A DNA stretch of 64,000 bases. Origin: an uncultured Gammaproteobacteria bacterium. Lineage in GTDB: Bacteria; Pseudomonadota; Gammaproteobacteria; Steroidobacterales; Steroidobacteraceae. The stretch spans positions 249,243-313,242 of the forward strand of contig CAWJIS010000002.1 of NCBI GenBank assembly GCA_963843035.1, in the 5' to 3' direction. Positions 1,974-49,446 of the stretch are shown here, in pieces (the first letter of the stretch is position 1; each line of letters opens with the position of its first letter). The notes beneath the pieces were generated by a model, which did no database searches, was not told where the DNA came from, and worked only from the letters and a program-made list of their open reading frames with translations. Both the position numbers and the translations under genes were made by a program.

Positions 1974-2183
1974 GTGCGCTCCAGAAAATACACATCCGCG
2001 GCAGCGCCCGCGCCGTGGCGCGGCATCTTGAGGCGCCACCTGACGGTGCTGCTGGCAGTCAAGCTCGCAGCGCTCGCGCTGCTGTGGGCGCTGTTCTTCT
2101 CGCCCGCGCACCGCACCGCCGTCGACGGCCAGGCCGCCGGGCGGCATCTGGCGGTGGCTGCGAAGGAAGGCACCCATGATTGA
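1974..2183 (+). CDS. Small single-TM protein encoded immediately upstream of cydA and overlapping it; function unknown
   Basis: 69-aa ORF with a basic N-terminus and one hydrophobic helix (LTVLLAVKLAALALLWALFF). Its stop overlaps the cydA start by 8 nt (2176..2183), and it is on the same strand. Confidence 0.45.
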   Translation: MRSRKYTSAAAPAPWRGILRRHLTVLLAVKLAALALLWALFFSPAHRTAVDGQAAGRHLAVAAKEGTHD

Positions 2184-3732
2184 CCTCTCGGTCGTGGCTC
2201 TGTCGCGCCTGCAGTTCGCGCTCACGGCCCTGTATCACTTCCTGTTCGTGCCATTGACGCTCGGCCTGTCCATGCTCCTGGTGATCATGGAGGCGGTGTA
2301 CGTCATGACGGGGCGCGAGATCTGGAAGCGCATGACGCAGTTCTGGGGGATGCTGTTCGGTATCAACTTCGCCATGGGAGTGGCCACCGGCATCACCATG
2401 GAGTTCCAGTTCGGAACCAACTGGGCCTATTACTCGCACTACGTGGGCGACATCTTCGGCGCGCCGCTGGCGCTCGAAGGGCTGATGGCGTTCTTCCTCG
2501 AGTCCACTTTCGTCGGCCTGTTCTTCTTCGGCTGGGAGCGTCTCTCGAAGGTGGGACATCTCCTCGTCACCGCCTTGGTGGCATTCGGCTCGAGCCTCTC
2601 GGCGCTGTGGATCCTGATCGCCAACGCCTGGATGCAGCATCCGGTAGGGGCGCAGTTCAACGAGCAGACCATGCGCATGGAGCTCAGCTCCTTCTCCCAG
2701 GTGCTGCTCAATCCGGTGGCGCAGGCGAAATTCGTCCACACGGTCGCGGCGGGCTACGTGGTGGGGTCGGTGTTCGTGCTCGCGGTGAGCGCCTGGTATC
2801 TGCTGCGCGGGCGGAACGTCGAGGTCGCCCGGCGCTCGCTGGCGGTGGCCGCCAGCTTCGGGCTCGCCTGCTCGCTGTCCGTGGTCGTGCTCGGCGATGA
2901 GTCCGGATATCTGGCGAGCGAGAACCAGAAGATGAAGATCGCGGCCATCGAAGCGGAGTGGCACACCGAGCCGCCGCCCGCGGGCTTCACGGTGTTCGGC
3001 ATCCCGGACGATGTCGCGCATACCACGCATGGCGAGCTCAAGGTGCCGTGGGTGCTCGGTCTCATCGCGACGCGCTCGGCCGACGAGCCCGTGCTCGGCA
3101 TCTTCGATCTGGTCGCCCGCGCCCGCACCCGCATCGCGAGTGGTATCGAGGCGCACGCGGCACTGACAGTCCTGCGCGCCCACCCGCAGGACGCCGCCGC
3201 GCGTGCGCTGTTCGAGGAGCATCGCGCCGACCTCGGCTACGGGCTGCTGCTCCTGCGCTACGTCGACGACCCGGCGCGCGCCACACCCGGACAGATCGAG
3301 GAGGCGGCCTGGTCGACCGTGCCCAACGTCGCGGTGCTTTTCTGGTGCTTCCGCCTCATGGTGGGCATCGGCCTGCTGCTGCTGTTGTTGTTCGCGACCG
3401 CCTTCTACCTCTCGGCGCGCCATCGCTTCGAGCGGCATCGCTGGTTCCTGCGAGCCGCGTTCCTGTGTCTGCCGCTGCCGTGGATCGCCGCCGAGCTCGG
3501 TTGGATCGTGGCCGAGTACGGCCGGCAGCCCTGGGCGATCGACGGGGTGCTGCCCACCTTCCTCGGAGCATCGCCGGTCCCGGCGGGCAATATCGCGCTG
3601 TCGCTCTGCGGCTTCGTGATCTTCTATTCGGCGCTGGCGGCCGTGGACGTGTACCTGCTCACCCGGATGATTCGTCGTGGCCCGGACGGGCTGGGGTATT
3701 GGCCGGAGGGGGACGCGCGTGCCCGATTATGA
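2176..3732 (+). CDS. cydA: Cytochrome bd ubiquinol oxidase subunit I
   Basis: 518 aa. Typical CydA N-terminus ([23 protein letters not shown]), GRQPW motif near the C-terminus ([14 protein letters not shown]), followed by cydB. Confidence 0.95.
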
Positions 3733-4855
3733 GACGCTGCGGCTGATCTGGTGGCTGATTCTGGGGGCACTGCTCATCGGCTTTGCGCTCATGGATGGCT
3801 TCGACCTAGGGGTGGGGGCGACGTTCCGCTTCGTCGGCCGCACCGACGAGGAGCGCCGTGCACTGCTCGAGTCCATCGAGCCGGTGTGGGACGGCAACCA
3901 GGTGTGGTTCATTCTCGCCGGTGGTGCGGTATTCGCGGCCTGGCCACTGCTGTACGCCGCTTTCTTCTCGGGCCTCTATCTGGCGATGTTCGTGCTGCTG
4001 GTCGCGCTGATCCTCAGGCCGGTGGGCTTCATCTTCCGGAACAAGATCCACGACCCTCGCTGGCGAAATGGCTGGGACTGGGCCCTGACAATCGGCGGCG
4101 CAGTCCCCTCCCTGCTGTTCGGCGTGGCCTTCGGCAATCTCTTTCTCGGCCTGCCGTTCCAATTCGACGCGCTGCAGCGCCCGGTGTTCACCGGCGGCTT
4201 CCTCGGCTTGCTGCACCCGTTCGCATTGCTGGTCGGGCTGGTGAGCCTCGCGATGCTGATCATGCACGGCTCGGCGTATGCGGCGCTCAAAGTAGGCGAG
4301 CCGATGTCGCGGCGCGCCGCCGCGGTCGGCGGCTGGGCGGCGGTGGTGTTCGTCGCCGGCTTCCTCATCGCCGGCACCTGGGTGGCGAACGCAATCGACG
4401 GGCACAGGATCTCATCGGTGGTCGACACTCTGGGACCGGCGAATCCGCTGGCCAAGCACGTGACGGTCGCAGCGGGTGGCTGGCTCGGCAACTTCCGCGC
4501 GCACGGCGTGCTGTGGCTCGCGCCCGCGGCGGCCGTGATCGCGGCGGCGCTCGCCGGCTCGCTCCTGCGCGCCGGGCGGGCGGGTCTCGCCCTGGTGTCG
4601 AGCGGCGCTGCTGTCGCGGGTACGATCCTGACCGCGGGAATTGCGCTGTTCCCCTTCCTCATGCCCTCGTCCACGCATCCCGATCAAGGCCTCACCGTGT
4701 GGGATGCCTCGAGCAGCGCACGCACCCTCGGCATCATGCTGATTGCCGTGCTGGTGTTCCTGCCCATCGTGCTCGCTTACACTGCCTGGGTATTTCGTGT
4801 GCTCAGGGGCCGGATCACGCTCGAGTCGGTCCGGCAGCACACGGGCCTCTACTGA
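3719..4855 (+). CDS. cydB: Cytochrome bd ubiquinol oxidase subunit II
   Basis: ORF 3677..4855. In-frame GTG at 3719 gives the CydB-type N-terminus (V)[32 protein letters not shown] and overlaps the cydA stop by 14 nt. Confidence 0.9.
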
Positions 4856-10717: not shown

Positions 10718-11035
10718 CTACGCCTGTTTCGGAGTCCAGGAGCTGCACCAGCCAGTGGCCTTGACGGCCTTGCCGGGGAACAGGAGACAGCCGCCCTCGG
10801 CCGAGCCGGCCGCGCCCTGGTAGAGGGTGCAGTTGCCGCACTTACTGCCGGGCTTGGCGCCGCTCGCCTTGCTCGCGTCCGTGGTGTACTTGAGCGCTTT
10901 GGCGGTGGGGTCGTCCGTCGAGACCAGGGGCAAGTCAGCCGCGCTCGCCGTCCTCACGGCGATCGGAATCAGCACCGTGCCGAGAGCGACCTTCTTCAGC
11001 AGCTGACGGCGGGACTCATCGAACACCTGCTTCAT
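10718..11035 (-). CDS. High-potential iron-sulfur protein (HiPIP), Tat-exported
   Basis: Start moved to ATG 11035, which has GAGGAG 6 nt upstream. Twin-arginine signal SRRQLLKK. HiPIP Cys pattern CGNC...C...WC (KCGNCTLY...GGCLLF...GWCSSW). Confidence 0.85.
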   Translation of the reverse strand: MKQVFDESRRQLLKKVALGTVLIPIAVRTASAADLPLVSTDDPTAKALKYTTDASKASGAKPGSKCGNCTLYQGAAGSAEGGCLLFPGKAVKATGWCSSWTPKQA

Positions 11036-11113
11036 GCGATTCTCCTCGACGGCCGTAAACACGCCGCGAAAGATTACGCAAAGCGAGGGCTGCTGGGAAG
11101 TAGTCACAACTAC

Positions 11114-12964: not shown

Positions 12965-13068
12965 TCGGGTCCACGTCCTGGTGAGGCTCCGGAACACCCG
13001 CTGCGCATAACTACGGATGGCGGGCGCAGCGTCCCGAGGCAGACTCCGCTGGCAAGAAGGAGTTTGCG

Positions 13069-13644
13069 ATGTCAGTGTCAGGGCCCAGGCCGCGCAGGTG
13101 GTCAACGTTAGTGCTCGCGGGAGTACTGTCCGCTCTTGCGCTGGCGGCGTGCGAGACGATTCACGTCTCGAGCGACTTTGATCGCACGGCGAGCTTCACC
13201 GGCTACCACTCCTTCGCCTGGCTACCGCGCGAGCACCATGGCACGGCCAACCCGCTGGTGGTACAGCGGGCTCACGATGCCATCCAGTCCGAGCTGACAG
13301 CCCGGGGCTTCACCTACAGCGAAAATGCCGCGGCTGCCGATTTCGTCGTCGACTTTACTATCGGCTCGCGCGAACGCATCGACGTGCAGTCCTACCCGTC
13401 GGCCTACGTGGGCCCTGGCTGGTGGGGCCCTGGCTGGTGGGGTTATCCCTACTGGGGCACGGATGTGGATGTACGCCAGTATCGCGAGGGGACACTTTCA
13501 ATAGACGTCTTCGACGCGCACAGCCACCGGGCCGTGTGGCACGGCTGGGTCAAGAAGGAGCTGACGCGCTCGGACATCGAGAATTCCGCAGCGCCTATTC
13601 GGGCCGCGGTAGCCGCGGTGCTGGCCAGGTTCCCGCCGTCGTGA
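13069..13644 (+). CDS. DUF4136-family lipoprotein
   Basis: AAGGAG 7 nt upstream of the ATG. Lipobox LAAC. ...SSDFDRTASFTGYHSFAW... and ...GTLSIDVFDA...VWHGW are typical of DUF4136. Confidence 0.75.
   Translation: MSVSGPRPRRWSTLVLAGVLSALALAACETIHVSSDFDRTASFTGYHSFAWLPREHHGTANPLVVQRAHDAIQSELTARGFTYSENAAAADFVVDFTIGSRERIDVQSYPSAYVGPGWWGPGWWGYPYWGTDVDVRQYREGTLSIDVFDAHSHRAVWHGWVKKELTRSDIENSAAPIRAAVAAVLARFPPS
13411..13440 (+). repeat. Perfect 2 x 15-bp tandem duplication inside the DUF4136 gene
   Basis: GGCCCTGGCTGGTGG occurs twice back to back, encoding GPGWW-GPGWW. Confidence 0.9.
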
Positions 13645-13702
13645 TGTGACGCGCCGAGCGGGGCGGGGCGGCGACTAGCGCAAATCCGCGGCAGGAACCG
13701 GG

Positions 13703-13906
13703 TCAGGAGCGCGTGGTGCGACGTGTTGGGCTCTTTTCCGGCGGATTCCACGGCCGGCCGGTGCGCTCCTCGATGTAGCGTCTGATCAGCCGCCGCACGA
13801 CCTGCGAAGGGGTCGCGTCTTCCTCGGCACACAGGCGCTCGAACAGCGTCTTCTTGCGCGGGTCGATGAGGATGGTCAGGCGTGCGGTGCGAATTTCGAC
13901 AGGCAA
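13703..13906 (-). CDS. Ribbon-helix-helix (CopG/Arc-like) protein
   Basis: ORF 13703..13975 with ARLTILIDPRKKTLFERLCAEEDATPSQVVRRLIRRYIEE, an RHH fold pattern. I prefer the internal TTG at 13906, because GTG 13975 would sit 6 bp from the divergent GTG of the next gene. Start uncertain. Confidence 0.55.
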   Translation of the reverse strand: MPVEIRTARLTILIDPRKKTLFERLCAEEDATPSQVVRRLIRRYIEERTGRPWNPPEKSPTRRTTRS

Positions 13907-13947
13907 TGCGCTACTCCGACGATGGGACGCGCGGCGTCTAATACTAT

Positions 13948-13953
13948 TATAAT
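13948..13953 (+). promoter_or_regulatory. Candidate -10 element for the hydrogenase-like operon
   Basis: Perfect TATAAT within the local AT-rich patch CTAATACTATTATAATCC, 28 nt upstream of GTG 13981. No convincing -35 element. Confidence 0.3.
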
Positions 13954-13980
13954 CCAGCGCGTACTTCAGTAGCACCGTCT

Positions 13981-15990
13981 GTGACGCCCGCGCCGCCGTA
14001 CTCGCCCCTCAACGCCTGCCTGGTGCTCCTGCTTGTCTGGGGAGTCATCGGTCTGGCGGGGCTGTTGCGCCCTACCAGCCTCAAGTTTGTCGGCCGCACC
14101 CTCTTTCCGATCAGCGCGCTATGCGGCGTCGCGCTGGCCGCGGTCGCCGCATGGGGCCTGGGAGTCGCGCCCGAGCGGACGATTCTCGCCATCGGACTGC
14201 CCGACCTTCCGGTACACCTGCGGCGCGACGGGCTGAGCAGCGTGTTTCTGTTCCTGCTCGGGGCGGCCTCGGCGGGCATCTCGATATTTGCCGCGGGCTA
14301 TTTCCGCCGGGGGCACGGCACGTCGGCGGGCCTCTTGTGCCTGCAGTACCACCTGTTCCTGGCGAGCATGGGCGTGGTGATGCTGGCCGACGACGCCTAC
14401 GCGTTCATGGTCTCGTGGGAGACGATGGCGCTGTCGTCCTACTTTCTCGTGACCACGCAGCACGGCTTGCCCGAGATCCGGCGCGCAGGGTTCCTGTATC
14501 TCCTGATCGCCCACGTCGGTGCAACCGCCATCCTGCTCGCCTTTGGCGTGATGCAGGGCGGCAGCTGGCAATTCACCTTCGAGGCGATGCGCGGTGCGCG
14601 GCTGCCAGCGCCCTGGGCCGCCGCCGCGTTCCTGCTCGCACTGTTCGGCTTCGGCGCGAAGGCGGGACTCGTGCCGCTGCACGTCTGGCTGCCCGAAGCA
14701 CATCCCGCCGCGCCCTCGCCGGTCTCGGCTCTTATGAGCGGCGTGATGCTCAAGACCGCCGTATACGGAGTGCTGCGGGTCACCTTCGATCTTCTCGGAC
14801 AGCCGGTGTGGTGGTGGGGCGTCGTGGCGCTCGCCGTCGGGCTGTTCACGGCGCTGTACGGCGTGGTGTTCGCCGCGGCGCAGAGCGACATGAAGCGGCT
14901 GCTGGCGTACTCCTCGATCGAGAACATCGGAATTATTTTCACGGCGTTCGGGCTGGCGATCGTCTTTCGTGGGGTCGGCATGCCGATGCTGGCGGCGCTC
15001 GCCCTGATCGCACTCCTTTACCACTGCCTCAACCACGCCTTCATGAAGAGCCTGCTGTTCCTTGGCACCGGGGCGGTGTTGCATTCGACCGGCGAGCGCA
15101 ATCTCGGTCGCCTCGGCGGCCTCATTCATCGCATGCCGTGGGTGGCATGGCTCACGCTGGTCGGTGCACTCGCGCTCGCGGGCCTGCCGCCGCTCAACGG
15201 CTTCGTGTCGGAGTGGCTGCTGCTGCAGGCCTTCCTGTTCGCCCACGAGGTGCCTCATACCTTCGTCAACATGCTGCTGCCGCTGGGGGCGGCGGTGGTG
15301 GTGCTCGCGGCGGCGCTGGCGGCCTACGTGATGGTCAAGTTCTTCGGCGTGATCTTCCTCGGACAGCCACGGGAAGCTACGCTCGCCCGCGCACACGACG
15401 CGGGAGTCCTGCAACGTCTCGGCCTGGCGTGGCTCGCGGCGGGGTGCATTGCGCTCGCCCTGTTCCCCACTCAGATCATCAACCTTCTGCGCGGCGTCGT
15501 AAGAGAGCTGAGCGGCGCCGATTTGCCGGGACAGGCCGCTCCCTGGTGGCTGCTCGAGCCGATACCCGGCCGCCAGGCCTCCTACTCGGCCCTCGGGTTC
15601 CTCCTCGCCCTGACGGCGGTCGTGCTGCTCACCATCCTCGGCGTACGCCTCTTCTATCACCGGCGGGTACGGCGCGCGGATCCCTGGGATTGCGGCTTTG
15701 CCAGGCTCGATGCCCGCATGCAGGACACGGCCGAGGGCTTCGGTCAGCCGATCCGGCACATTTTCGCGCAGTTCTTCCTGCTGCGGCGTGAGCTGCCTTC
15801 GCCGTTCGATCGGGCTCCGCGCTACCGCGTCGTGATCGGCGACCGCATCTGGCTGCGCCTCTACGAGCCGCTCGGCGGGCTGGTGCAGCGCATTGCGGAT
15901 GGCTTCGCCTGGGTGCAGCAGGGACGCATCGCCACCTATCTCCTCTACAGCTTCATCACGCTGGTGGCGCTGCTCGCGCTGGTGCTATGA
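13981..15990 (+). CDS. HyfB/HycC-like antiporter-type membrane subunit (NuoL/M/N family) of a group-4-hydrogenase-like complex
   Basis: 669-aa polytopic protein with Mrp/NuoL-like segments (WETMALSSYFLV, GAKAGLVPLHVWLPEAHPAAPSPVSALMSGVMLK). First gene of a tightly packed six-gene set. Confidence 0.85.
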   Translation: MTPAPPYSPLNACLVLLLVWGVIGLAGLLRPTSLKFVGRTLFPISALCGVALAAVAAWGLGVAPERTILAIGLPDLPVHLRRDGLSSVFLFLLGAASAGISIFAAGYFRRGHGTSAGLLCLQYHLFLASMGVVMLADDAYAFMVSWETMALSSYFLVTTQHGLPEIRRAGFLYLLIAHVGATAILLAFGVMQGGSWQFTFEAMRGARLPAPWAAAAFLLALFGFGAKAGLVPLHVWLPEAHPAAPSPVSALMSGVMLKTAVYGVLRVTFDLLGQPVWWWGVVALAVGLFTALYGVVFAAAQSDMKRLLAYSSIENIGIIFTAFGLAIVFRGVGMPMLAALALIALLYHCLNHAFMKSLLFLGTGAVLHSTGERNLGRLGGLIHRMPWVAWLTLVGALALAGLPPLNGFVSEWLLLQAFLFAHEVPHTFVNMLLPLGAAVVVLAAALAAYVMVKFFGVIFLGQPREATLARAHDAGVLQRLGLAWLAAGCIALALFPTQIINLLRGVVRELSGADLPGQAAPWWLLEPIPGRQASYSALGFLLALTAVVLLTILGVRLFYHRRVRRADPWDCGFARLDARMQDTAEGFGQPIRHIFAQFFLLRRELPSPFDRAPRYRVVIGDRIWLRLYEPLGGLVQRIADGFAWVQQGRIATYLLYSFITLVALLALVL

Positions 15991-16937
15991 GACCGATCGA
16001 GCTTCTCACCCAGTTGCTGGAGCTCGCGGCCGCGCTCGCCGCGGCGCCGCTGTTCCTCGGCTGGATCAATCAGTGCCGTGCGTGGCTGCAGAACCGCACT
16101 GCCCCCAGCATCTGGCTCCCGTACCGCGGCATTCGCAAGCTCTTCCACAAGGACGCCGTGATTGCAGGGAACGCCTCGCAGCTCTTTCGCCTCGCTCCCT
16201 ACATCACCTTCGGCGCGATGGTGGTTGCCGCCGGCATTATTCCCTCGATGGGCACCCGGCTGCCGTTCACGCGCATCGCCGACGCGATCGCGCTGGTCGG
16301 GCTGCTCGCCACGGCCCGGGTATTCATATCGCTCGCGGCCATGGACATCGGCACCGCCTTCGGCACTCTCGGCGCGCGGCGCGAGATGATGGTCGGGTTC
16401 CTCGCCGAGCCGGCGCTGCTCATGATCATCTTCGTCGCCTCGCTCATCTCCTCGACCACCGCGCTGCCGGCGATCACCGAGCACCTGGCGACCCAGACGC
16501 TCGGCCTCTACCCGAGCCTGGCCTTCACGGCAGTCGCCTTCACCATGGTGCTGCTCGCCGAGAATGCGCGCATCCCGATCGACAACCCTGCCACCCATCT
16601 CGAGCTCACCATGATCCATGAGGCGCCGCTGCTCGAGTACTCGGCGCGTCATCTGGCGCTCATGGAATGGGCGGCCGCGCTCAAGCTCTTCAACTACGCC
16701 TGCATCGGCTTTGCGCTCTTCATTCCCTGGGGAGTGTCGACCGGCCAGGGCGGTCCGCTGGCCCTGTTCGGCTCGATTCCGGTGCTCGCTGCCAAGCTCA
16801 TCGCCGCAGGCGGCGTGCTCGCCCTGATTGAAACCGTGTCCGCCAAGCTGCGGGTGTTCCGGGCGCCGGAGTTCCTCGCCACGGCATTTCTCTTTGCGGT
16901 GCTCGGTCTGCTGGTGCACCTGCTGCTGGGAGCTTAG
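15987..16937 (+). CDS. HycD/HyfC-like membrane subunit (NuoH family)
   Basis: 316 aa, overlaps the previous stop by 4 nt. NuoH/HycD-like helices and the conserved AENARIPIDNPATHLELTMIHEA loop. Confidence 0.85.
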   Translation: MRPIELLTQLLELAAALAAAPLFLGWINQCRAWLQNRTAPSIWLPYRGIRKLFHKDAVIAGNASQLFRLAPYITFGAMVVAAGIIPSMGTRLPFTRIADAIALVGLLATARVFISLAAMDIGTAFGTLGARREMMVGFLAEPALLMIIFVASLISSTTALPAITEHLATQTLGLYPSLAFTAVAFTMVLLAENARIPIDNPATHLELTMIHEAPLLEYSARHLALMEWAAALKLFNYACIGFALFIPWGVSTGQGGPLALFGSIPVLAAKLIAAGGVLALIETVSAKLRVFRAPEFLATAFLFAVLGLLVHLLLGA

Positions 16938-16942
16938 AAGCC

Positions 16943-17629
16943 GTGAGTGGTGTCCCCCTGATCCTGCAGCTGCTGAACTTCTGCGCCGCGCTGTTGCTGC
17001 TGCTGTCGTTCGCGATGCTGTCACAGCGCCGCATCGTGAATCTGGTCAATCTGCTCGCCCTGCAGGGAAGCGTGCTGCTGCTCGCAACGCTGCTGCTGGC
17101 CGCGCGCACCGGACAGCATCACCTGTACCTCTCTGCGGCGCTCACGCTCGGCCTCAAGGTAATCCTGCTGCCGTGGCTGCTGCATCGCCTGATCCGCCGG
17201 CTCGGTGTCTACTGGGACGCCGAGCCGCTGCTCAACATCTCCGGGACGATGCTGGCCGGCGTGCTGATCGTGGTATTCGCGTTCGGCCTCGCCCAGCCGA
17301 TCTCGCAGCTCGCCAGCACCGCGACCCGTAACGCGATCGGCATCGCCGTCGCGGTCGTGCTGCTTTCCTTTCTCATGATGATCACGCGCCGCAAGGCCAT
17401 GTCCCAGGTGGTGGGCTTCCTGTCGATGGAGAACGGCCTGTTCTTCGGCGCCATGAGCGCGACCTACGGCATGCCGATGGTCGTCGAATTCGGCGTCGCG
17501 CTCGATGTGCTGGTGGCGGTGCTGGTGCTCGGCATCTTCTTCTTCCAGATCCGCGAGCAGTTCGACAGCCTCGACCTGCACCACCTGGAGGCGCTCAAGG
17601 AGGAAGCCGCCGGGAGGAGGGGGGGTTAA
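16943..17629 (+). CDS. HyfE-like small membrane subunit
   Basis: 228 aa. FLSMENGLFFGAM matches the hydrogenase-4 component E family motif. Confidence 0.8.
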   Translation: MSGVPLILQLLNFCAALLLLLSFAMLSQRRIVNLVNLLALQGSVLLLATLLLAARTGQHHLYLSAALTLGLKVILLPWLLHRLIRRLGVYWDAEPLLNISGTMLAGVLIVVFAFGLAQPISQLASTATRNAIGIAVAVVLLSFLMMITRRKAMSQVVGFLSMENGLFFGAMSATYGMPMVVEFGVALDVLVAVLVLGIFFFQIREQFDSLDLHHLEALKEEAAGRRGG

Positions 17630-17631
17630 GC

Positions 17632-19089
17632 ATGGAGCTCCTGATCCTCCTGGCAGCCCCACTGACCGGTGCGCTTACGCTCGGGGTCCTCGGAGCGCGG
17701 CGCTTCGCGCCCGAGCTCAACATCGGGTTCAGCCTGCTCACCTTCCTCGCCGCGTGTGCACTTGCAGCGCGCGTCGTCGCCCAGGGCCACCTCGTCCTGG
17801 GCCGCGAGCAGTTCTTCATCGACGCCTTCAACGTGTTCCTCGTGGCACTCACCGCGTTCGTCGGGCTCACGACCTCGATCTTCTCGCGACCCTATATGCG
17901 CGTGGAGTTGCAGCACGGCCGGGTGAGCGCGGGGCGGCTGCGCCTCTACCACAGCATGTATCAGCTCTTCATGTCGACGATGCTGGTCGCGCTGACGACC
18001 AACAACATGGGACTGCTGTGGGTGGCCATGGAAGCCGCAACGCTCTCGACGGTGCTGCTGGTGACACTCTATCGGACCGCCGCAAGTCTCGAGGCCGGGT
18101 GGAAATACTTCATCCTGTGCGGCGTGGGCATCGCCCAGGCGCTCTTCGGCACCATCCTGCTGTACTTCGCGGCGGAGCGCGCCATCGGCGCCGAGGGCGT
18201 GAGCGCCCTGCTGTGGACGCACTTGAACGGCGTCAAAGGGCAGCTCGAGCCGGCGGTGCTGAGCCTCGCATTCGTATTCCTGCTGGTCGGTTACGGGACC
18301 AAGGTCGGACTTGCGCCCCTGCACAACTGGCTGCCGGACGCGCACGCCGAGGGCCCGACGCCGATCTCCGCCGTGCTCTCGGGCCTGCTGTTGAATGTCG
18401 CGATCTACGCGGTCGTGCGCTGCAAGATACTGGTCGAGGGGTCGCTCCACTCCGCGCTCCCCTCACGGATGCTGATGGGCTTCGGACTCCTGTCGGTGGT
18501 GCTCGCGGTGTTCCTGCTCTGGCGCCAGCGTGACATCAAACGCCTGTTCGCCTACTCCTCGATCGAGCACATGGGCATCATCACCTTCGCTTTCGGCATG
18601 GGCGGCGCGGTGGCGAACTTCGCCGCCCTGCTGCACATGACGGTGCACTCCCTCACCAAATCCGCCATCTTCTTTGCCGCCGGGCACGCCTCGCAAAAAG
18701 CCGGCTCGCAGCTCATGGATCAGATCCGCGGCCTCATCACCCTCAGTCCGACCATCGGCTGGGGCCTCATGATGGGGTCGCTCGCCATTCTCGGGCTGCC
18801 GCCCTTTGGCGTCTTCGCGAGCGAGTTCCTGATCCTCACCACCGCGATGCGCGAGCAGCCGTGGGCGACGCCGATACTGCTGGCCGCGCTCGCGGTGGCG
18901 TTCGCCGCCATCTTCGGTCGGGTGCAGCCGATGGTGTTCGGCGAGACGACCGCGAAGCGCCTGCCGCACCCACCGGCGCTGCTGCCGGTGTTCGTGCATC
19001 TCGGCCTGGTGCTCGGGCTCGGACTCTACATCCCGCCTTACCTTGCTGATTGGTATCGGGCGGCGGCGCGTCTGATCGGGGGCGGCTGA
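17632..19089 (+). CDS. HyfF/HycQ-like antiporter-type membrane subunit (NuoM/N family)
   Basis: 485 aa. GTKVGLAPLHNWLPDAHAEGPTPISAVLSGLLLN is the NuoM/N-type motif. 2-nt gap to the preceding gene. Confidence 0.85.
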   Translation: MELLILLAAPLTGALTLGVLGARRFAPELNIGFSLLTFLAACALAARVVAQGHLVLGREQFFIDAFNVFLVALTAFVGLTTSIFSRPYMRVELQHGRVSAGRLRLYHSMYQLFMSTMLVALTTNNMGLLWVAMEAATLSTVLLVTLYRTAASLEAGWKYFILCGVGIAQALFGTILLYFAAERAIGAEGVSALLWTHLNGVKGQLEPAVLSLAFVFLLVGYGTKVGLAPLHNWLPDAHAEGPTPISAVLSGLLLNVAIYAVVRCKILVEGSLHSALPSRMLMGFGLLSVVLAVFLLWRQRDIKRLFAYSSIEHMGIITFAFGMGGAVANFAALLHMTVHSLTKSAIFFAAGHASQKAGSQLMDQIRGLITLSPTIGWGLMMGSLAILGLPPFGVFASEFLILTTAMREQPWATPILLAALAVAFAAIFGRVQPMVFGETTAKRLPHPPALLPVFVHLGLVLGLGLYIPPYLADWYRAAARLIGGG

Positions 19090-19090
19090 A

Positions 19091-20623
19091 ATGACGCAGC
19101 GGGACTCGAATGCGGAGAGCCACGCGCTTCCTGGAGCGCCGCGCTGGCGCACGCGTAACGTCTCGCCGGAGGAATGGGTCCACGCGGCGCAGGAGCTGGC
19201 GGGGGGCGGTGCGCGGCTCGCGGCGCTCTGGACGAACGGCGGCGAGCGCGGCGCGCCGACCGTGCGTGCGGCCTTCTTCACCGGCACGGGCCCGCTCCTC
19301 CTCAACCTGCCCCTCGACGAGACGGATGCGCTTTACCCCGGGCTCGAGGAGCTCTTCCCGTGCGCCGCCCGCATGCAGCGCGCTGCGGCGGATCTCTCCG
19401 GAGTGCGCGCGTCGGATCCCGATACCCGCCCCTGGTTGCGGCACAATGCATGGCCGCCCGGATACCGGCCGCTCGTCGACCCGCCCCCGGCCGAGCACGA
19501 GTCCGGGATCGACGCGTACGAGTTCGTGCGGGTCGAGGGCGAGGGAGTACACGAGATAGCCGTCGGCCCGGTGCACGCCGGCATCATCGAGCCGGGACAT
19601 TTCCGCTTCTCGGTGGTCGGGGAAAAGGTGCTGCGGCTCGAGGAGCGGCTCGGGTACGTTCACAAGGGCATCGAGCGCCGCTTCACCGAGCTGCCCGTCC
19701 TCGAGGCACATCGGCTCGCGGCGCGCGTCTCGGGAGACTCGGCGGTGGCGTTCTCCTGGGCCTATTGCCAGGCACTCGAAAGTCTGGCCGGCGTCACGAT
19801 CCCTGCGCGCGCCGCCTGGCTGCGTGCGCTGTGCCTCGAGCTCGAGCGTGTGGCCAACCACCTGGGAGACCTCGGCGCGCTGGGAAACGACGCCGGCTTC
19901 GCCTTCGGTCTTGCGCAGTTCTCGCGCCTGAAGGAGCGGCTGCTGCGCAGCTGTGCCGAGGCGCTCGGTGAGCGTTATCTCATGAGCGCCATCGTGCCGG
20001 GTGGCAGCGGGGTCGACCTGACGGTCGCCGGTGCGGAGTTGCTGCGCTCGTGTTCTGGTGAGATCGCCCGCGAAGTGCTCCTGCTGCGCACGATCTATGA
20101 TGAGCACGAAGGGGTGCGCGATCGCTTCACCGGCGCCGGCACGATCGCGCCGCTGCTCGCCGCACAGCTTGGCCTGACCGGGCTCGCGGGGCGCGCCAGC
20201 GGGCAGGCATTCGATCTGCGAGTCGACCTGCCCTGCGCGCCGTACAGTGAGCTTGGCGTTACCCGGATCGGCCATCGTGCCGGGGATGTTGCGGCGCGGG
20301 TCGCGATGCGCTTCGATGAGTTGAGTGAATCGTTGCGCCTGATCGAGCACATCATCATCGGGTTACCGCCCGGGCCTCGCGCGCAAGCCGTGCACAACCC
20401 GTCGCCCGGGTTACTCGGCATCGGCGCGATCGAGGGCTGGCGCGGGCCGGTGCTGGTCGCGCTCGAGACCGGGCCCGAGGGCGCCATCAGCCGCTGTCAC
20501 CCGCACGATCCTTCGTGGCAGAACTGGCCGGCCCTCGAGCACGCGATCATCGACAACATCGTGCCGGATTTTCCGCTCATCAATAAGTCCTTCAACCTGT
20601 CCTACAGCGGACACGATCTCTAG
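19091..20623 (+). CDS. HycE/NuoCD-like 'large subunit' lacking the [NiFe]-binding cysteines (Ehr-type)
   Basis: 510 aa: NuoC-like N-terminus plus a hydrogenase large-subunit/NuoD fold (VGPVHAGIIEPGHFRF, ELERVANHL). The L1 position reads RVSGDS (19730..19741) instead of R-x-C-G-x-C. The C-terminus reads SFNLSYSGHDL instead of D-P-C-x-x-C-x-x-R/H. Confidence 0.85.
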   Translation: MTQRDSNAESHALPGAPRWRTRNVSPEEWVHAAQELAGGGARLAALWTNGGERGAPTVRAAFFTGTGPLLLNLPLDETDALYPGLEELFPCAARMQRAAADLSGVRASDPDTRPWLRHNAWPPGYRPLVDPPPAEHESGIDAYEFVRVEGEGVHEIAVGPVHAGIIEPGHFRFSVVGEKVLRLEERLGYVHKGIERRFTELPVLEAHRLAARVSGDSAVAFSWAYCQALESLAGVTIPARAAWLRALCLELERVANHLGDLGALGNDAGFAFGLAQFSRLKERLLRSCAEALGERYLMSAIVPGGSGVDLTVAGAELLRSCSGEIAREVLLLRTIYDEHEGVRDRFTGAGTIAPLLAAQLGLTGLAGRASGQAFDLRVDLPCAPYSELGVTRIGHRAGDVAARVAMRFDELSESLRLIEHIIIGLPPGPRAQAVHNPSPGLLGIGAIEGWRGPVLVALETGPEGAISRCHPHDPSWQNWPALEHAIIDNIVPDFPLINKSFNLSYSGHDL

Positions 20624-20632
20624 GACGCGCGC

Positions 20633-21154
20633 ATGCTCAAGACCCTGCGACAAATTGCCTCAGTCGGAATCGTGACCGAGCCCGCGCCCCGGGCGGACGC
20701 AGCGCTGCGGCTGCGCGCGGCGCTGCAGGCACGCATCCTGGCGGTCCTCGGACGCGCCTTGTGCGTGCGTGCGGTCGATGCCGGTTCCTGCAACGGCTGC
20801 GAGCTCGAGATCCACGCGCTCAACAACCCCTGGTACAACATCGAGGGCCTCGGTATCCGCTTCGTCGCGAGTCCCCGGCACGCGGATCTGTTGCTGGTGA
20901 CCGGTCCGGTCTCGAGGCACATGGAAATCGCCTTACGCCGCACCTACGAGGCCACACCAGACCCTAAGCTGGTGGTGGCAGTCGGGGATTGCGCCTGCAC
21001 CGGCGGGATTTTCGGCGAAGGCTACGCGAGCCGCGGCCGCATCTCCAACGTCATCCCCGTGGATGTGGCCGTGCCGGGGTGTCCGCCCGATCCGACGCGG
21101 ATCCTGACGGGCATCCTCACGGTGCTCGAGGGGCGCTCAATGGCTCCTGGCTAG
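20633..21154 (+). CDS. HycG/NuoB-like small subunit with intact [4Fe-4S] ligands
   Basis: 173 aa. GSCNGCELE, SPRHADLLLVTG, GDCACTGG and PGCPP are the four-Cys NuoB/HycG cluster motif. Confidence 0.9.
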   Translation: MLKTLRQIASVGIVTEPAPRADAALRLRAALQARILAVLGRALCVRAVDAGSCNGCELEIHALNNPWYNIEGLGIRFVASPRHADLLLVTGPVSRHMEIALRRTYEATPDPKLVVAVGDCACTGGIFGEGYASRGRISNVIPVDVAVPGCPPDPTRILTGILTVLEGRSMAPG

Positions 21155-22270
21155 CACTGCTTCGATGGGCGGCGCCGCCTGCGGCACCGCCTGGCGGTAA
21201 TCCTTCCCAAGCAGCGCCGCGACCGTGGCGGCGATCTGCGCCTGCTGCACCTCGCCGGTGTGGCTGCGCTCGCCGAGCGGCGCGGTGTCGGGCCCCATCA
21301 CGGCGATCCAGATGTTCTCCGAGCCTTTTTCCTTGACCCCGTGGTCCTTCCATTCGACCGGTCCGCTGCCGCGCCCGTGATCGGCCGTGAGGATGAAGGT
21401 CGTCTGGTCGCGGTACGCGGGCAGGCTCTGGAGCTTGTTCCACAGCTGCTCGACGTAGCGATCGAAGGAGTGCGCGGCATGCAGCAGCAGGTCGTAGCGG
21501 CCCATGTGGCCCCAGTCGTCCGTCTCGCCATAGCCGACGAACAGCACGCGCGGCTGCGCCCTGGTAAACGAGTCCATCAGCGGGATCTGCAGGAACGAGT
21601 CGTAGACAACCGGGTCCTCGAGTGTCGTAGTGGTCCCGTAGAGCTCGTTCATCAGCGCCTCGCGCGGGCCCACCTCACCTTTATATGGCAGGTCGCGGCC
21701 GGCCTGCAGTGGCAGGTGGCTGCGGCCGACGTTGAAGATGTCCTTGAACGTGGCCCAGGAGGCAAACGCCGCGACCTGGCCCTTGAGGTCCGGCAGGCCG
21801 TTCAGCCACTCGAACACCGTGACGTTGGGGTTCGGTCCGAACTCGTTGGAGTTGACGCGCGGATCGGCATGGCCCGAGAGCATCTCGTTGTAGCCGGGAT
21901 ACGAGAACCAGAAGGTGTTGGTGACGCGCGCCACGCTGCCCTTCGTCTGGTTGCCGAAGATCTGGCCGTGCGCGGCGACCGTGGTCCAGATGAACGGGAA
22001 CAACGCTTTGCGACGCTCGTTGACGTCGTCGCGCCAGTACCTGGCTCTCAGGTCCGCCTCCTTGTCCCAGATGCCGCCGTTCTTCGCGTTGAGGAGCTCG
22101 GGGTCGGCCCCGGTGAACATCTCCTGCCAGCGCAGCCCGTCGCTCACGATGAGCACGACGTTGCGGGTCTTGAGCGGGGCGGACGTGTCGGCGAGCGCGA
22201 GCGGCGCGCCGGCGCACAGCGCCAGCACCATGACGCTGAGCGCCGACCTGACAACGATACGGTTCGACAT
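21137..22270 (-). CDS. Secreted alkaline-phosphatase-superfamily enzyme (type I phosphodiesterase/nucleotide pyrophosphatase-like)
   Basis: Start moved to ATG 22270 (MSNRIVVRSALSVMVLALCAGAPLALA signal peptide). VVLIVSDGLRWQ metal/nucleophile region and TADHGRG near the C-terminus. Confidence 0.7.
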   Translation of the reverse strand: MSNRIVVRSALSVMVLALCAGAPLALADTSAPLKTRNVVLIVSDGLRWQEMFTGADPELLNAKNGGIWDKEADLRARYWRDDVNERRKALFPFIWTTVAAHGQIFGNQTKGSVARVTNTFWFSYPGYNEMLSGHADPRVNSNEFGPNPNVTVFEWLNGLPDLKGQVAAFASWATFKDIFNVGRSHLPLQAGRDLPYKGEVGPREALMNELYGTTTTLEDPVVYDSFLQIPLMDSFTRAQPRVLFVGYGETDDWGHMGRYDLLLHAAHSFDRYVEQLWNKLQSLPAYRDQTTFILTADHGRGSGPVEWKDHGVKEKGSENIWIAVMGPDTAPLGERSHTGEVQQAQIAATVAALLGKDYRQAVPQAAPPIEAVLARSH

Positions 22271-22357
22271 CAGACTCTCCACGGGCGGCTCGGGACGCAT
22301 GACGCGTCCCGCACATCGCTACAATAGCAGGCAGCGCCCTTGAGCTGCGTGGAGCTT

Positions 22358-30758: not shown

Positions 30759-32327
30759 TTACTCGACCACGGTCTGCGACTGCTCGCGCAGGTACTGCGG
30801 CAGGTAGTAGAAGGACGCGATGGCCTTGCCCGTGGTGCCCGAGCCTTTCCAGCCACCGAAGGGCTGATAGCCCGGCCAGGCACCGGTGGTCGCGCCCTGC
30901 GGGCGGTTCGCGTAAGTGACGCCGGCCTCGATGCGCTCCTGGAACCAGCCGATCTCGTCCGCAGCGCCGTAGAAGCCCGCCGTGAGGCCGAGCGGGGAGG
31001 CGTTGGCGAGCTCCATCGCTTCGTCGTTCGATGCCACCCGGTGCAGCATCAGGATCGGCAGAAACATCTCCTTGTCCCACAGCGGGTGGCCCACCGGCGC
31101 TTCGGCGAGCGTCGGGCGCACGAAGAAGCCACGGGCGAGGGCCCCGTCCGTGAGCTGCTCGCCGCCGGCGAGGATGCGCGCGCCGTCCGTGCGCAGCAGC
31201 GCCGCGTAGCGCGCGTAGTCGTCGTAGCCCGAGCTCGTCGCGACCGGCCCCAGCCAGTTCTCGCGCCGCGCCGGATCACCGATGGAGAGTGCCGCAAGCT
31301 GCCCGAGCAGCGCCTCGGTGAGGGGCTCGGCCACCTCCCGGGCGACATACAGCCGTGAGAGCGCCGAGCACTTTTGTCCCCCCATGCCGAACGCGGAGCG
31401 CAGGATGCCGGCGGCGGCACGCTTCAGGTCCGCGCGCGCGGTGACGATGCAGGCATTCTTGCCACCCATCTCGGCGATGCAGGGCCTGGGATACGCGCCG
31501 CCCTGGAGCTTCACGGCGATCTGCCGGCCGACTTCGTAGGAGCCGGTGAAGGTGACGCCCGCCGTGAGCGGATGCTCGATGAGCGCGGCGCCGATCGCGG
31601 TGCTCGAGCCGCTCAGGTAATTGAAGACTCCCGGCGGCAGCCCCGCATCGCGCATGCAAGCGGTAAGCAGCCGCCCCGCCCACGGCGTCACCGTCGCGCC
31701 CTTCAGGACCACGGTGTTGCCGGTGATGAGCGCGGCCGCCACCGGGCCCGCGGCGAGAGCCACGGGGAAGTTGAAGGGCGTGATGACGACCCAGGCGCCG
31801 TAGGGTTTCAGGACACTGCGGTTGTGGGACACGTGACCGCTGAGCGGATCGTCGGGGAGCGCGCGCGCGAAGCCGCCCGCGCGCTCGAAGTCGTCGCAGT
31901 AGGTCGCGAAGAAATCCGCCGCCTCCTGCGCCTCACCCAGGGCTTCCATGCGGTTCTTGCCCACCTCGAGGGTGAGCGCTGCGGCGATGTCGTAGACGCG
32001 CTCCTCGATCAGCTGGCCGACCCGCCGCAGGAGCTGCGCACGCAGTTGCGTCGGGGTCTGCTTCCACGCGGGCCAGGCGCCGTGCGCGGCGCGCAGCGCG
32101 CGGTCCGCGTCCGCCGCGCTCGCGGCCGCAAACGTGCCGATGAGCTCGCCACGGTCGGCGGGGTTGCGCTTTTCCGCGGCGTGCTCGGCCGGCCGGTCGG
32201 CGCCGGCGATGTAGAGCGGGTGCGAGCCGCCGAGCGTGCCGCGCACACGCTGCATGGCCGCATCGAAGCGCGTGTGCAGCTCCTCGGGCGGATCGAACAT
32301 GGTCGCGTAGGTGAGCTTGAAGGTCAT
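30759..32327 (-). CDS. Aldehyde dehydrogenase, P5C/glutamate-semialdehyde-dehydrogenase-like
   Basis: ORF 30759..32453; start placed at codon 43 (MTFKLTYATMFDPPEELHTRF...), computed from the ORF frame. EVGKNRMEALGEAQEAADFF, catalytic-Cys region FGMGGQKCSA, and EMGGKN. Confidence 0.8.
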   Translation of the reverse strand: MTFKLTYATMFDPPEELHTRFDAAMQRVRGTLGGSHPLYIAGADRPAEHAAEKRNPADRGELIGTFAAASAADADRALRAAHGAWPAWKQTPTQLRAQLLRRVGQLIEERVYDIAAALTLEVGKNRMEALGEAQEAADFFATYCDDFERAGGFARALPDDPLSGHVSHNRSVLKPYGAWVVITPFNFPVALAAGPVAAALITGNTVVLKGATVTPWAGRLLTACMRDAGLPPGVFNYLSGSSTAIGAALIEHPLTAGVTFTGSYEVGRQIAVKLQGGAYPRPCIAEMGGKNACIVTARADLKRAAAGILRSAFGMGGQKCSALSRLYVAREVAEPLTEALLGQLAALSIGDPARRENWLGPVATSSGYDDYARYAALLRTDGARILAGGEQLTDGALARGFFVRPTLAEAPVGHPLWDKEMFLPILMLHRVASNDEAMELANASPLGLTAGFYGAADEIGWFQERIEAGVTYANRPQGATTGAWPGYQPFGGWKGSGTTGKAIASFYYLPQYLREQSQTVVE

Positions 32328-32429
32328 GAGTTCCGCCCCCCGGGGATCGCCGCGACCATGTGCTATTATCCCACGGCTATTCGCACGGCGAATCACATTA
32401 GACGCGCGTCGTTCACTCGTCAACGCGAC

Positions 32430-48506: not shown

Positions 48507-48513
48507 CCCTTTC

Positions 48514-49443
48514 CTAGCGCATCAGCGCGCGGCCCGACGGATGGTTGGAGCCGTGCACCTGGGTGTGGCAGTTGACGCAGCCGCCGGCGAGCAGATAGGC
48601 GCTCGGCGCCCCGCCGGGCAGGCCTTGCGGGCTGTTGAGGATCGACGGATGCCCGGCGCCTTCGTGGCATTGCTGGCACAGGAACGGCGGCCGCGTCTTG
48701 AGCAGTGCCGGCTGAGCCGAGCCGTGTGCGTCGTGGCAGTTCGAGCAGTCTTCGGCGACCGGCTGATGCTCCCAGAGGAACGGTCCGCGGTATTCGGCAT
48801 GACAGCTGGTGCAGGTCTCGGTCACCGTGTTGGCGACCAGCTGGAACGGTCCCGGCGAGCCGTGCGGCGCATGGCAGGACGCGCAGGCCATCTTCCCCTC
48901 GCGCAGCGGATGATGCGAGGGCTTGAAGAGGTCGGTGTGCTCGGCCTGGTGGCAGCTCGTGCACACCTCGATCTGCGTCGCCGCGGTGAGCACCGGGTCG
49001 TGGGCCGCGTGCAGGGTGTGACAGGCCGCGCACGGCACCTCGCTCGCGGCATGCTGGCTCGTGGCCCACTCGTGTGCGGCGTTGGACTGATGACAGCCGA
49101 GGCACTGCGCATTCTGCCGCGCGGCCGGGGCGAGCGCGTGCGCGCCGAAATCCACGATGCCCGCCGGCTGCTTGCCGCGCGCCCGTACGTGCGCGCCGCC
49201 AGGTCCGTGGCAGGCCTCGCACTGCAGCCCCCCATGGCCGAAGGGGCCGCGGTCGTCCCTGGGACGGGCGTGCTTGGTCTTGAAGAGGCCGAGGAGCGCG
49301 GGATCGTCATGACAGCCGAGGCAGCTGTCGGCGCCTTTGGCGCTGTAGGCGGGAGCACTGTCCTCATTGGCGGCGAGCGCCTGGGTCATCGCGCCCGAGA
49401 GCAGCGCGATGACCAGGGCGGCCCTGGCCGCGGACAGCCGCAT
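48514..49443 (-). CDS. mtrA: MtrA/DmsE/PioA-family periplasmic decahaem c-type cytochrome
   Basis: 309 aa with a signal peptide. Ten CxxCH motifs: CLGCH, CEACH, CLGCH, CAACH, CTSCH, CASCH, CTSCH, CSNCH, CQQCH, CVNCH. Confidence 0.9.
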   Translation of the reverse strand: MRLSAARAALVIALLSGAMTQALAANEDSAPAYSAKGADSCLGCHDDPALLGLFKTKHARPRDDRGPFGHGGLQCEACHGPGGAHVRARGKQPAGIVDFGAHALAPAARQNAQCLGCHQSNAAHEWATSQHAASEVPCAACHTLHAAHDPVLTAATQIEVCTSCHQAEHTDLFKPSHHPLREGKMACASCHAPHGSPGPFQLVANTVTETCTSCHAEYRGPFLWEHQPVAEDCSNCHDAHGSAQPALLKTRPPFLCQQCHEGAGHPSILNSPQGLPGGAPSAYLLAGGCVNCHTQVHGSNHPSGRALMR

Positions 49444-49446
49444 CGC

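Follow-up and report, generated by a model that had tools for sequence, protein, structure and literature searches.

The six closely packed genes at positions 13981-21154 of a 64,000-nucleotide stretch of DNA (the window) from an uncultured member of the Steroidobacteraceae almost certainly encode an Ehr (energy-converting-hydrogenase-related) complex, whose genes are known as ehrABCDLS or, equivalently, hyfBCEFGI. As its subunit homologies predict, Ehr is a six-subunit inner-membrane relative of the group-4 [NiFe] hydrogenases and of complex I. The complex is read here, tentatively, as a redox-coupled ion translocator whose single iron-sulfur cluster would trade electrons directly with a soluble carrier encoded at an unlinked locus. 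Ehr complexes lie evolutionarily between the [NiFe] hydrogenases and complex I and are widespread in soil Proteobacteria, Actinobacteria including Mycobacterium tuberculosis, Nitrospira, and many candidate phyla; they were named about twenty years ago.

The operon and its relatives

The genes, all on the + strand, are as follows.

13981-15990, + strand: ehrA, HyfB/NuoL-like antiporter-like membrane subunit, 669 amino acids (aa); NF005086, 855 bits; PF00361
15987-16937, + strand: ehrB, HycD/NuoH-like membrane subunit, 316 aa; PF00146 (NADHdh)
16943-17629, + strand: ehrC, HyfE-like membrane subunit, 228 aa; NF008556, 93.7 bits, below the cut-off of 136
17632-19089, + strand: ehrD, HyfF/NuoM-N-like antiporter-like membrane subunit, 485 aa; NF005045, 853 bits
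19091-20623, + strand: ehrL, NuoC-NuoD/HycE-like large subunit, 510 aa; PF00346 (Complex1_49kDa), the N-terminal third NuoC-like
20633-21154, + strand: ehrS, NuoB/HycG-like small subunit, 173 aa; PF01058 (Oxidored_q6)

Subunits were assigned by profile searches (Pfam and NF-numbered families), and the gene map of the window was guided by GC content at third codon positions (GC3) and then by Pfam. ehrA and ehrB share a 4-nt ATGA overlap, and the junctions that follow are gaps of 5, 2, 1, and 9 nt; coordinates, junctions, and subunit order are all as the original prediction had them.

Every feature by which Ehr is recognized is present: a large subunit homologous to NuoD and its group-4 counterparts from which the NiFe cysteines are gone, a NuoB/HycG-type small subunit, and NuoH/HycD-like and antiporter-like subunits, all in one operon. 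The marks of a group-4 [NiFe] hydrogenase (the L1 and L2 CxxC motifs and a HycF/NuoI-type subunit with two [4Fe-4S] clusters) are missing, as are those of complex I (equivalents of Nqo4 His38 and Tyr87, and NuoI or NuoEFG in the operon or among the annotated genes of the window). The ferredoxin motif CxxCxxCxxxC is absent from every open reading frame (ORF) of at least 40 aa in all six frames of the 64-kb window, and no formate dehydrogenase (FDH), carbon monoxide dehydrogenase (CODH), NuoEFG, or ferredoxin was found in the 49 window ORFs scanned with Pfam, a set from which eight mostly short predicted genes were missing. Motif scan and Pfam thus agree with the earlier statement that no HycF/NuoI-type gene or donor module lies in or near the operon.

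Ehr complexes are characterized in the same way in papers citing the founding studies (PMC6349859; PMC10284858; PMC10432482). Because the same six genes have been published as ehrABCDLS in Methylacidiphilum (PMC6688271) and Geobacter (PMC7894505), and as hyfBCEFGI, an 'incomplete operon', in Cupriavidus metallidurans CH34 and C. necator H16 (PMC2864759), the architecture seen in the window is not new; the operon is a member of a known complex that is common in Steroidobacteraceae. Its nearest relatives are in metagenomic Steroidobacteraceae genomes (82-89% identity in EhrL), and close relatives occur in more than 590 species-representative genomes, including those of Cupriavidus, Rhodoferax, Ramlibacter, Methylibium, and Accumulibacter. 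The operon is also carried on megaplasmids and chromids of Burkholderiales, where PGAP names its products 'hydrogenase 4 subunit B' and 'NuoB family protein'.

The subunits and their order are the same in the Ehr systems of Geobacter sulfurreducens (GSU0739-45), Methylacidiphilum, Nitrospira, and Cupriavidus (H16_A2196-A2201 and Rmet_4666-4671); these systems share with the window the loss of the NiFe CxxC motifs, one cluster, and the lack of HycF/NuoI (PMC7894505; PMC6688271; PMC10284858; PMC2864759). Subunit by subunit, the locus of C. necator A5-1 is 58-73% identical to that of the window. A locus-tag search of the main text of the papers covered, with supplementary tables outside its range, returned no expression data for H16_A2196-A2201; all subunits of the more distantly related Geobacter Ehr have been detected by proteomics (PMC7894505).

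Pocket, pump, and iron-sulfur cluster

The best match of EhrL among solved structures is E. coli HycE (7z0s_E; E = 3e-48). In that alignment RVSGDS stands for RVCGIC and NLSYSG for DPCYSC, so that all four NiFe cysteines are replaced (by S, S, S, and G), which bears out the Ehr-like identity first proposed. Among 83 close relatives the first of these positions is Cys in 8 sequences and the other three are never Cys. Aligned with T. thermophilus Nqo4, EhrL has Ile166 and Gly215 in place of the quinone ligands His38 and Tyr87.

The pocket motifs of EhrL are R-V-S-G-D-S (residues 212-217) and N-K-S-F-N-L-S-Y-S-G-H-D (residues 498-509). R-x-[S/C]-G-D-S...W and the second motif are nearly invariant, and E-P-G-H-F-R-F is invariant, in the 83 close EhrL sequences. 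In 36 divergent Ehr large subunits (32-58% identity to the first sequence of the alignment) the Gly-Asp pair, the Glu of EPGHF, the 'canopy' Arg, one Tyr, and the penultimate Asp are all invariant. Judged by these alignments, the pocket that replaces the NiFe site is the most conserved part of the enzyme and not a degenerate one. About 15 relatives of 35-40% identity, among representatives clustered at 50%, retain all four cysteines; their ligands identify them as predicted true hydrogenases, clearly distinct from Ehr, and it is on this ground that Ehr is placed as their sister group.

Given the absent ligands, H2 evolution or uptake and Hyp-dependent maturation are implausible for the complex, which is predicted no longer to make or use H2 and to need no Hyp maturation. 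The original prediction had doubted that the complex is a Hyp client, and it is not a plausible one, because the NiFe cysteines are lost, there is a single cluster, and there is no HycF/NuoI or donor module. Two further ideas about EhrL were rejected: Cys469-His470-x-His472 as a general Ehr metal site, since the motif is confined to this proteobacterial clade, and the missing cleavable C-terminal extension as an argument against Hyp maturation, since the four-Cys sister group ends at the same position and the trait does not discriminate. An exact-sequence look-up of EhrL returned no record.

The membrane subunits retain the residues expected of a pump. In EhrA, Glu147 of transmembrane helix (TM) 5, Lys227 of TM7, and Glu411 of TM12 are invariant in the family, and Lys258 is present in 54 of 64 sequences; the equivalent residues of EhrD, E134, K224, and E398 (TM5 Glu, TM7 Lys, and TM12 Glu), are invariant as well. 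The solved subunits closest to EhrD are MbsH (6u8y_H) and MbhH (6cfw_H). EhrB matches HycD best (7z0s_D; E = 3e-35), and its acidic residues E133, E141, E192, D199, E206, E212, and E217 are essentially invariant. EhrC belongs to no Pfam family and retrieved nothing in a sequence search of solved structures; E163 and E182 are invariant in 60 sequences, and its counterpart in the distant locus L229 has a weak Oxidored_q2/NuoK match, so that the C-terminal half of that counterpart is probably NuoK-like. With the canonical charged residues of the two antiporter-like subunits and the NuoH-like subunit kept, the ion-translocation module is predicted to be intact.

All six genes are under purifying selection. 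Pairwise ratios of nonsynonymous to synonymous substitution rates (dN/dS) against five relatives are 0.03-0.15 for ehrA, ehrB, ehrC, ehrD, and ehrS (0.11-0.15 for ehrA itself) and 0.16-0.28 for ehrL, and the A-B-C-D-L-S order with six intact frames is found in essentially every close locus with enough sequence. The operon is not decaying, since its frames are intact, dN/dS is low, and the residues of pump, pocket, and cluster are conserved; decay in relatives, which would have spoken against the original prediction, is not what they show.

EhrS has one [4Fe-4S] site: C53, C56, C120, and C150 align to all four ligand cysteines of MbhJ and of HycG, and the four are invariant in 77 close sequences. 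It alone in the complex has cluster cysteines, in agreement with the single NuoB-type cluster noticed earlier. Among distant Ehr small subunits, 65 of 70 retain the four NuoB-cluster cysteines, and around the one-cluster forms lies a graded series. About 12 distant small subunits are long (260-350 aa), with an N-terminal HycF/NuoI-type ferredoxin (Fer4) domain fused to the protein. In one of them (locus L224), residues 1-105 match HycF (7z0s_F; E = 3e-18), MbhN, and NuoI, and residues 123-259 match HycG. Five of the fused forms have both CxxCxxCxxxC motifs; the other seven are degenerate, with about one cluster left. Full HycF-type domains with two [4Fe-4S] clusters are found in Ehr-type operons of Acidobacteria and Firmicutes, and one archaeal locus has a free 112-aa gene of the same two-cluster type between L and S. 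The absence of a ferredoxin-type subunit is true of most Ehr complexes, not of all. The idea that the ferredoxin subunit and the NiFe site are lost together is rejected, as Ehr-type large subunits co-occur with small subunits that carry the full HycF fusion.

At the other end of the series, five distant loci (L207, 3236-3820; L236, 3283-3834; L239, 3169-3726; L229, 3209-3811; and L216) encode a NuoB-family small subunit whose ligand positions are T/S/D, C/E, D/G, and D, three or four cysteines having been lost. Because of these substitutions the five small subunits probably bind no cluster, and their complexes would be without any Fe-S centre. Their hosts are Daviesbacteria, Saccharibacteria, one unclassified bin, and bins labelled Thermoleophilia and Bdellovibrionales; the sequences from the last two are close to those from bacteria of the Candidate Phyla Radiation (CPR), and the cluster-less forms make up one closely similar group centred on the CPR. 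Their loci keep the Gly-Asp large subunit and the membrane genes. The series from HycF-fused through one-cluster to cluster-less forms provides natural variants for asking whether electron transfer is needed, and, together with the invariant Gly-Asp pocket signature, it may be a new result.

Short small subunits from different phyla start with M-x-x-[IL]-x-K-x-x-x-x-G-x-V-T-[EG]-x-P, as HycF-type domains also do. A profile built from ferredoxin-bearing N-termini alone picked up 14 short small subunits in other phyla (E <= 0.01); in the window, residues 8-17 of EhrS ranked first among 494 ORFs, though weakly (E = 0.55). The short EhrS may be the descendant of a HycF-HycG fusion from which the Fe-S core was deleted, an inference that is well supported for Nitrospira-type sequences; for the EhrS of the window such an origin is only suggestive.

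Neighbouring genes and the probable RHH_9 regulator

The two genes that flank the operon lie where they had been described.

13703-13975, - strand: ribbon-helix-helix (RHH) ORF of the RHH_9 family, divergent from ehrA; PF19839, 77.8 bits against a cut-off of 23.4
21137-22300, - strand: Metalloenzyme/Phosphodiest (phosphodiesterase-like) gene, 387 aa, convergent, overlapping the 3' end of ehrS by 18 nt

The phosphodiesterase-like gene stands in the position first reported and is incidental there. The RHH gene likewise has the position given, but it is more than the mere neighbour it was taken for, since it is the one conserved partner of the operon.

In the close family, coding-like ORFs within 6 kb of the operon were clustered across 83 loci, and RHH_9 was the only widely common neighbour. 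The phosphodiesterase-like gene, shared by only 7 close relatives, was rejected as a partner. HiPIP was rejected too, being near ehr in only 4 of the loci and periplasmic, as its twin-arginine signal indicates. Coding-like ORFs with a ferredoxin motif lie within about 10 kb in only 4 of the 83 loci (L009, L072, L073, and L082), one of which (L072) has, by Pfam, a polyferredoxin about 5 kb downstream.

Some close loci have genes of their own. In Methylibium sp. (L073; 33-3744 and 7150-7818) RHH-ehr is immediately preceded, on its own strand, by a second group-4-like pair, whose large subunit (700 aa) is NuoC/D-like and whose small subunit (254 aa) has a Fer4 dicluster domain at its N-terminus, and a glutathione S-transferase gene stands between ehrB and ehrC. 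A spermidine-synthase-like gene (PF01564; 'fused MFS/spermidine synthase' in PGAP) occurs near ehr in 10 of the 83 loci and is absent from the window and from distant loci. Examples are the following.

L082, 12122-12994: spermidine-synthase-like gene
L063 (C. necator A5-1), 13002-13862: spermidine-synthase-like gene
L073, 2920-3744: spermidine-synthase-like gene
L243, 2546-3301: spermidine-synthase-like gene
L244, 2810-3643: spermidine-synthase-like gene

On Variovorax and Paraburkholderia plasmids this gene is directly upstream on the same strand, in Paraburkholderia 20 nt before hyfB. By analogy with the assembly factors of complex I, its product might be an assembly or modification factor with a methyltransferase fold.

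For the distant family, aligned large subunits of distant Ehr complexes served as the query of a scan that brought in 80 loci, from Actinobacteria (Mycobacterium and Streptomyces), Nitrospira, Rokubacteria, Acidobacteria, Verrucomicrobia, Omnitrophota, CPR, Saganbacteria, and archaea; 56 of the 57 classifiable large subunits are of Ehr type. Of the two gene orders that occur, A-B-C-D-L-S is that of the window; the other, S-A-B-C-D-L, is found in Actinobacteria (the Rv0082-Rv0087 type), Rokubacteria, and CPR. In 30 of the distant loci (within L163-L203; Actinobacteria, Rokubacteria, and others) an ArsR-type gene encoding about 120 aa precedes the S-A-B-C-D-L operon on its strand, where M. tuberculosis has Rv0081, and a σ54 activator is near ehr in 6. 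Across the 80 loci no dehydrogenase, NuoEF, or free ferredoxin recurs; only the ArsR-type and σ54-type regulators do.

The operon Rv0082-Rv0087 of M. tuberculosis, with its regulator Rv0081, resembles that of the window in its Ehr-type large subunit, in having the same six subunit types, and in the small dedicated transcription factor at its head (PMC6728331); it differs in gene order, in having an ArsR-type regulator instead of RHH, and in a large-subunit identity of only about 40%. Small dedicated regulators have been recruited separately in different Ehr clades.

The comparison of neighbourhoods proposed in the original prediction has thus covered about 160 loci and found no linked redox partner, with regulators the sole recurrent neighbours, and immediately beyond the region there is no HycF-like or dehydrogenase partner, either in the window or in any lineage sampled. 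From the lack of an operon-linked redox partner in the lineages examined it follows that the partner is a general cellular carrier, or that there is none. That this lack extends across phyla may be a new result.

RHH_9 adjoins ehrA, as scored with the family hidden Markov model, in 48 of 57 related loci with upstream sequence. In Steroidobacteraceae it is divergent, at a distance of 40-130 nt, and no spermidine-synthase-like gene accompanies it in the window, whereas in Cupriavidus, Methylibium, and other Burkholderiales it stands on the same strand, 2-28 nt upstream, and opens the operon. The association also holds in reverse: where loci were retrieved by RHH alone, ehrA is divergently adjacent in 70 of 80, and 2 of the 10 exceptions have no upstream sequence. 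With weak ParG/CopG-type similarity to solved structures, RHH_9 is a probable dedicated transcriptional regulator of ehr. Its start as listed, GTG at 13975, is 5 nt from ehrA; TTG at 13906, probably the true start, yields a protein of 67 aa in line with relatives and leaves an intergenic region of 74 nt, as they have. The start codon of ehrA is GTG, with no obvious Shine-Dalgarno sequence before it.

In front of ehrA is an AT-only element.

13939-13953, + strand: TAATACTATTATAAT (TAAT-N3-ATTA, then TAAT), overlapping a TATAAT -10-like hexamer

The hexamer lies 27 nt before the ehrA start. TAATACTATTATAAT is unique in the 64-kb window, where 0.04 occurrences are expected by chance, and of the 43 divergent-type loci, 39 have ATTATAAT, with at most one mismatch, in the 200 nt that precede ehrA, compared with 1.2% of background windows. 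At the same element, L034, L036, and L056 have the perfect palindrome ATGATAAT-N3-ATTATCAT. Because it is conserved upstream of ehrA, the element is taken as a predicted conserved promoter element and is a plausible candidate for the RHH operator, to which RHH_9 would bind; part of the conservation may simply be that of a strong -10 box. A generic scan for promoters and terminators gave background levels only. The RHH_9 partner and the operator-like element, which may be new results, provide a handle on the inducing condition.

Proposed electron flow, its alternatives, and the rest of the window

According to the preferred reading, which is put forward tentatively, the cluster of EhrS would exchange electrons with a freely diffusing one-electron carrier of the cytoplasm, of the ferredoxin or flavodoxin type and encoded elsewhere. 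The carrier would dock at the site of the ancestral HycF-like ferredoxin domain, which is still fused to EhrS in some phyla. Electrons would pass to or from a substrate, most likely a membrane quinone, in the conserved pocket at the L/S/B interface (Glu167, Asp216, Ser217, Arg451, and Tyr505), and the pocket chemistry would be coupled through EhrB and EhrC to movement of H+ (or Na+) by EhrA and EhrD. RHH_9 would set transcription at the TAAT-N3-ATTA/TATAAT element. That electrons still flow is suggested because full HycF domains persist in some Ehr lineages and the cluster is retained almost universally; the same evidence is used to argue that electron transfer is ancestral and probably still important.

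Thermococcales MBS/Mbx and MBH (6u8y and 6cfw) resemble Ehr in that MbsH and MbhH are nearest to EhrD and MbhJ is nearest to EhrS. MBS is a precedent for a group-4 relative with a changed substrate. Both MBS and MBH keep a NuoI-like subunit (MbhN, 6cfw_N) and a sodium module of the Mrp type, and Ehr has neither.

Several points weigh against electron exchange with a soluble carrier. No donor or acceptor was identified in this analysis or in the literature, which agrees with the original prediction that the electron partner is an open question (PMC10284858; PMC10432482; PMC6349859). EhrL lacks the His and Tyr with which complex I binds quinone, for which reason quinone is only a guess. The five cluster-less loci and several degenerate ferredoxin domains leave room for an electron wire that is decaying and unneeded; the N-terminus of EhrS is by itself only weakly HycF-like; and the evidence of expression comes from Geobacter, not from this operon.

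The next candidate, which is somewhat unlikely, is a cation or proton transporter that is independent of redox chemistry or gated by it. The membrane arm would then serve pH and ion homeostasis as a secondary antiporter like Mrp, or as a proton conduit; the L/S cap would have a structural or regulatory part, and the [4Fe-4S] cluster would belong to the structure or sense redox state and would not be a relay. Such a role has been suggested for Methylacidiphilum ehrABCDLS as pH homeostasis (PMC6688271). It would fit about 160 loci that have regulators and no linked donor or acceptor gene, and a large subunit from which NiFe and quinone ligands are both gone; the small subunits, from HycF-fused through degenerate and one-cluster to cluster-less, look like stepwise loss of an unneeded wire, with the Gly-Asp large subunit and membrane genes surviving even where the cluster does not. 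Yet the cluster cysteines hold without exception in the close family and in nearly all distant small subunits, the cluster-less forms are confined to the single CPR-centred group, and the full two-cluster domains of Acidobacteria and Firmicutes are sensible only with electron flow. The likeness to Mrp is itself partial: Ehr has two antiporter-like subunits and possibly a NuoK/MrpC-like EhrC, but the other small Mrp subunits (B, E, F, and G) were not found, and Mrp lacks a redox cap whereas Ehr has one of the NuoB/C/D type.

It is distinctly doubtful that Ehr forms the membrane part of some larger enzyme with a dehydrogenase encoded at another place in the genome, for example an FDH-Ehr complex analogous to formate hydrogenlyase (FHL). 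A complex of this kind has been proposed for Margulisbacteria and Saganbacteria (PMC6349859), and the Ehr subunits of Geobacter are more abundant on formate (PMC7894505). The enterobacterial FHL-1 and Hyf (FHL-2) enzymes of group 4a (PDB 7z0s) also supply the closest solved homologues, HycE, HycD, and HycG, of EhrL, EhrB, and EhrS; HyfB-, HyfE-, and HyfF-like subunits are present in Ehr, and the EPGHFRF motif and 'canopy' Arg are retained. However, FHL wires its dehydrogenase through HycB and HycF, and the operon in the window has neither of these, nor NiFe cysteines, FdhF, or HyfA/D/H/J/R, and is predicted to make no H2. No formate dehydrogenase or NuoEF-like gene is among the annotated genes of the window, no dehydrogenase recurs near the roughly 160 loci, and electrons delivered to a complex lacking a NiFe site would still need an acceptor.

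With about the same small chance, Ehr could be a minimal, NuoI-less relative of complex I that runs in reverse in aerobic or lithotrophic bacteria, the proton-motive force pushing electrons from quinol through the single cluster to ferredoxin or flavodoxin; the low-potential carrier would again dock at the site of the lost HycF domain. Ehr has in common with complex I (Nuo/Nqo) and with ferredoxin-dependent NDH-1/Fpo-type enzymes the NuoB, NuoC-D, NuoH, and NuoL/M/N homologues, the N2-type site, and the pump residues, but it has no NuoI, NuoEFG, or NuoA, only two antiporter-like subunits, and Ile and Gly for His38 and Tyr87. Reversal is compatible with the retained cluster and pump, the lack of a linked donor, the uptake hydrogenase and Mtr/Pio-type conduit of the window, and the finding of Ehr in Nitrospira, Cupriavidus, Mariprofundus, Thiobacillaceae, and Methylococcales. 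Many organisms with Ehr live on high-potential donors, which makes the idea attractive; if it were true, Ehr would be an unrecognized source of low-potential reductant in those organisms.

That the complex is a true group-4 hydrogenase which evolves H2, an incomplete Hyf/FHL-2 whose maturation is the work of the Hyp proteins from 32 kb away, is suggested by automated names ('hydrogenase 4 subunit B/F' and 'Ni,Fe-hydrogenase III large subunit') and by the hyp genes within the same window, but the probability of this is negligible given four NiFe cysteines replaced consistently in 83 relatives, genuine four-Cys relatives that are clearly distinct, and hyp genes that adjoin a canonical hydrogenase of their own. 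Equally remote is a decaying, functionless remnant of a hydrogenase operon, a view that fits the loss of catalytic metal site and ferredoxin subunit and the 'incomplete operon' label (PMC2864759) and is opposed by the intact frames, dN/dS of 0.03-0.28, invariant pump and pocket residues, close relatives in more than 590 species genomes, and the proteins detected in Geobacter (PMC7894505).

Other genes of the window include the following.

901-1893: tandem universal-stress-protein gene
2176-4855: cytochrome bd oxidase subunits I and II
10718-11107, - strand: HiPIP, Tat-exported (twin-arginine signal SRRQLLKK...ASA|A)
30759-32453, - strand: aldehyde dehydrogenase ORF; PF00171, 394 bits
31374-34967, + strand: PD40-repeat ORF, 1197 aa as listed, its start overlapping the aldehyde dehydrogenase ORF
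46368-48506, - strand: MtrB/PioB-type outer-membrane porin
48514-49443, - strand: MtrA-like multihaem cytochrome
49447-52041, - strand: MtrC/OmcA-like cytochrome
52136-52765, + strand: dihaem cytochrome c
53197-54204: hypE, the hyp set E, F, X, D, B, A spanning 53197-60786
56513-58231, - strand: HypX/HoxX-like gene (formyltransferase and enoyl-CoA hydratase domains), between hypF and hypD
60813-62066: genuine [NiFe] hydrogenase small subunit, divergent from hypA
62063-63772: genuine [NiFe] hydrogenase large subunit; PF00374, 768 bits, ending 228 nt before the end of the window

The hyp genes are thus paired, as the original prediction had it, with the small and large subunit genes of their own canonical [NiFe] hydrogenase; by its gene content the hyp set is predicted to be of the aerobic type. 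Directly beside it, 46368-52765 is predicted to encode a conduit for extracellular electron transfer, serving either the reduction of metals or the oxidation of Fe(II). The PD40-repeat protein probably starts downstream of 32453, because its PD40 Pfam matches begin near residue 407. In L081, the closest relative, HiPIP directly adjoins RHH-ehr; in the window the two are separated by three inserted genes, those of a CGNR/ABATE regulator, an EamA transporter, and a DUF4136 protein. Universal stress protein genes are also found near ehr on the Variovorax and Paraburkholderia plasmids.

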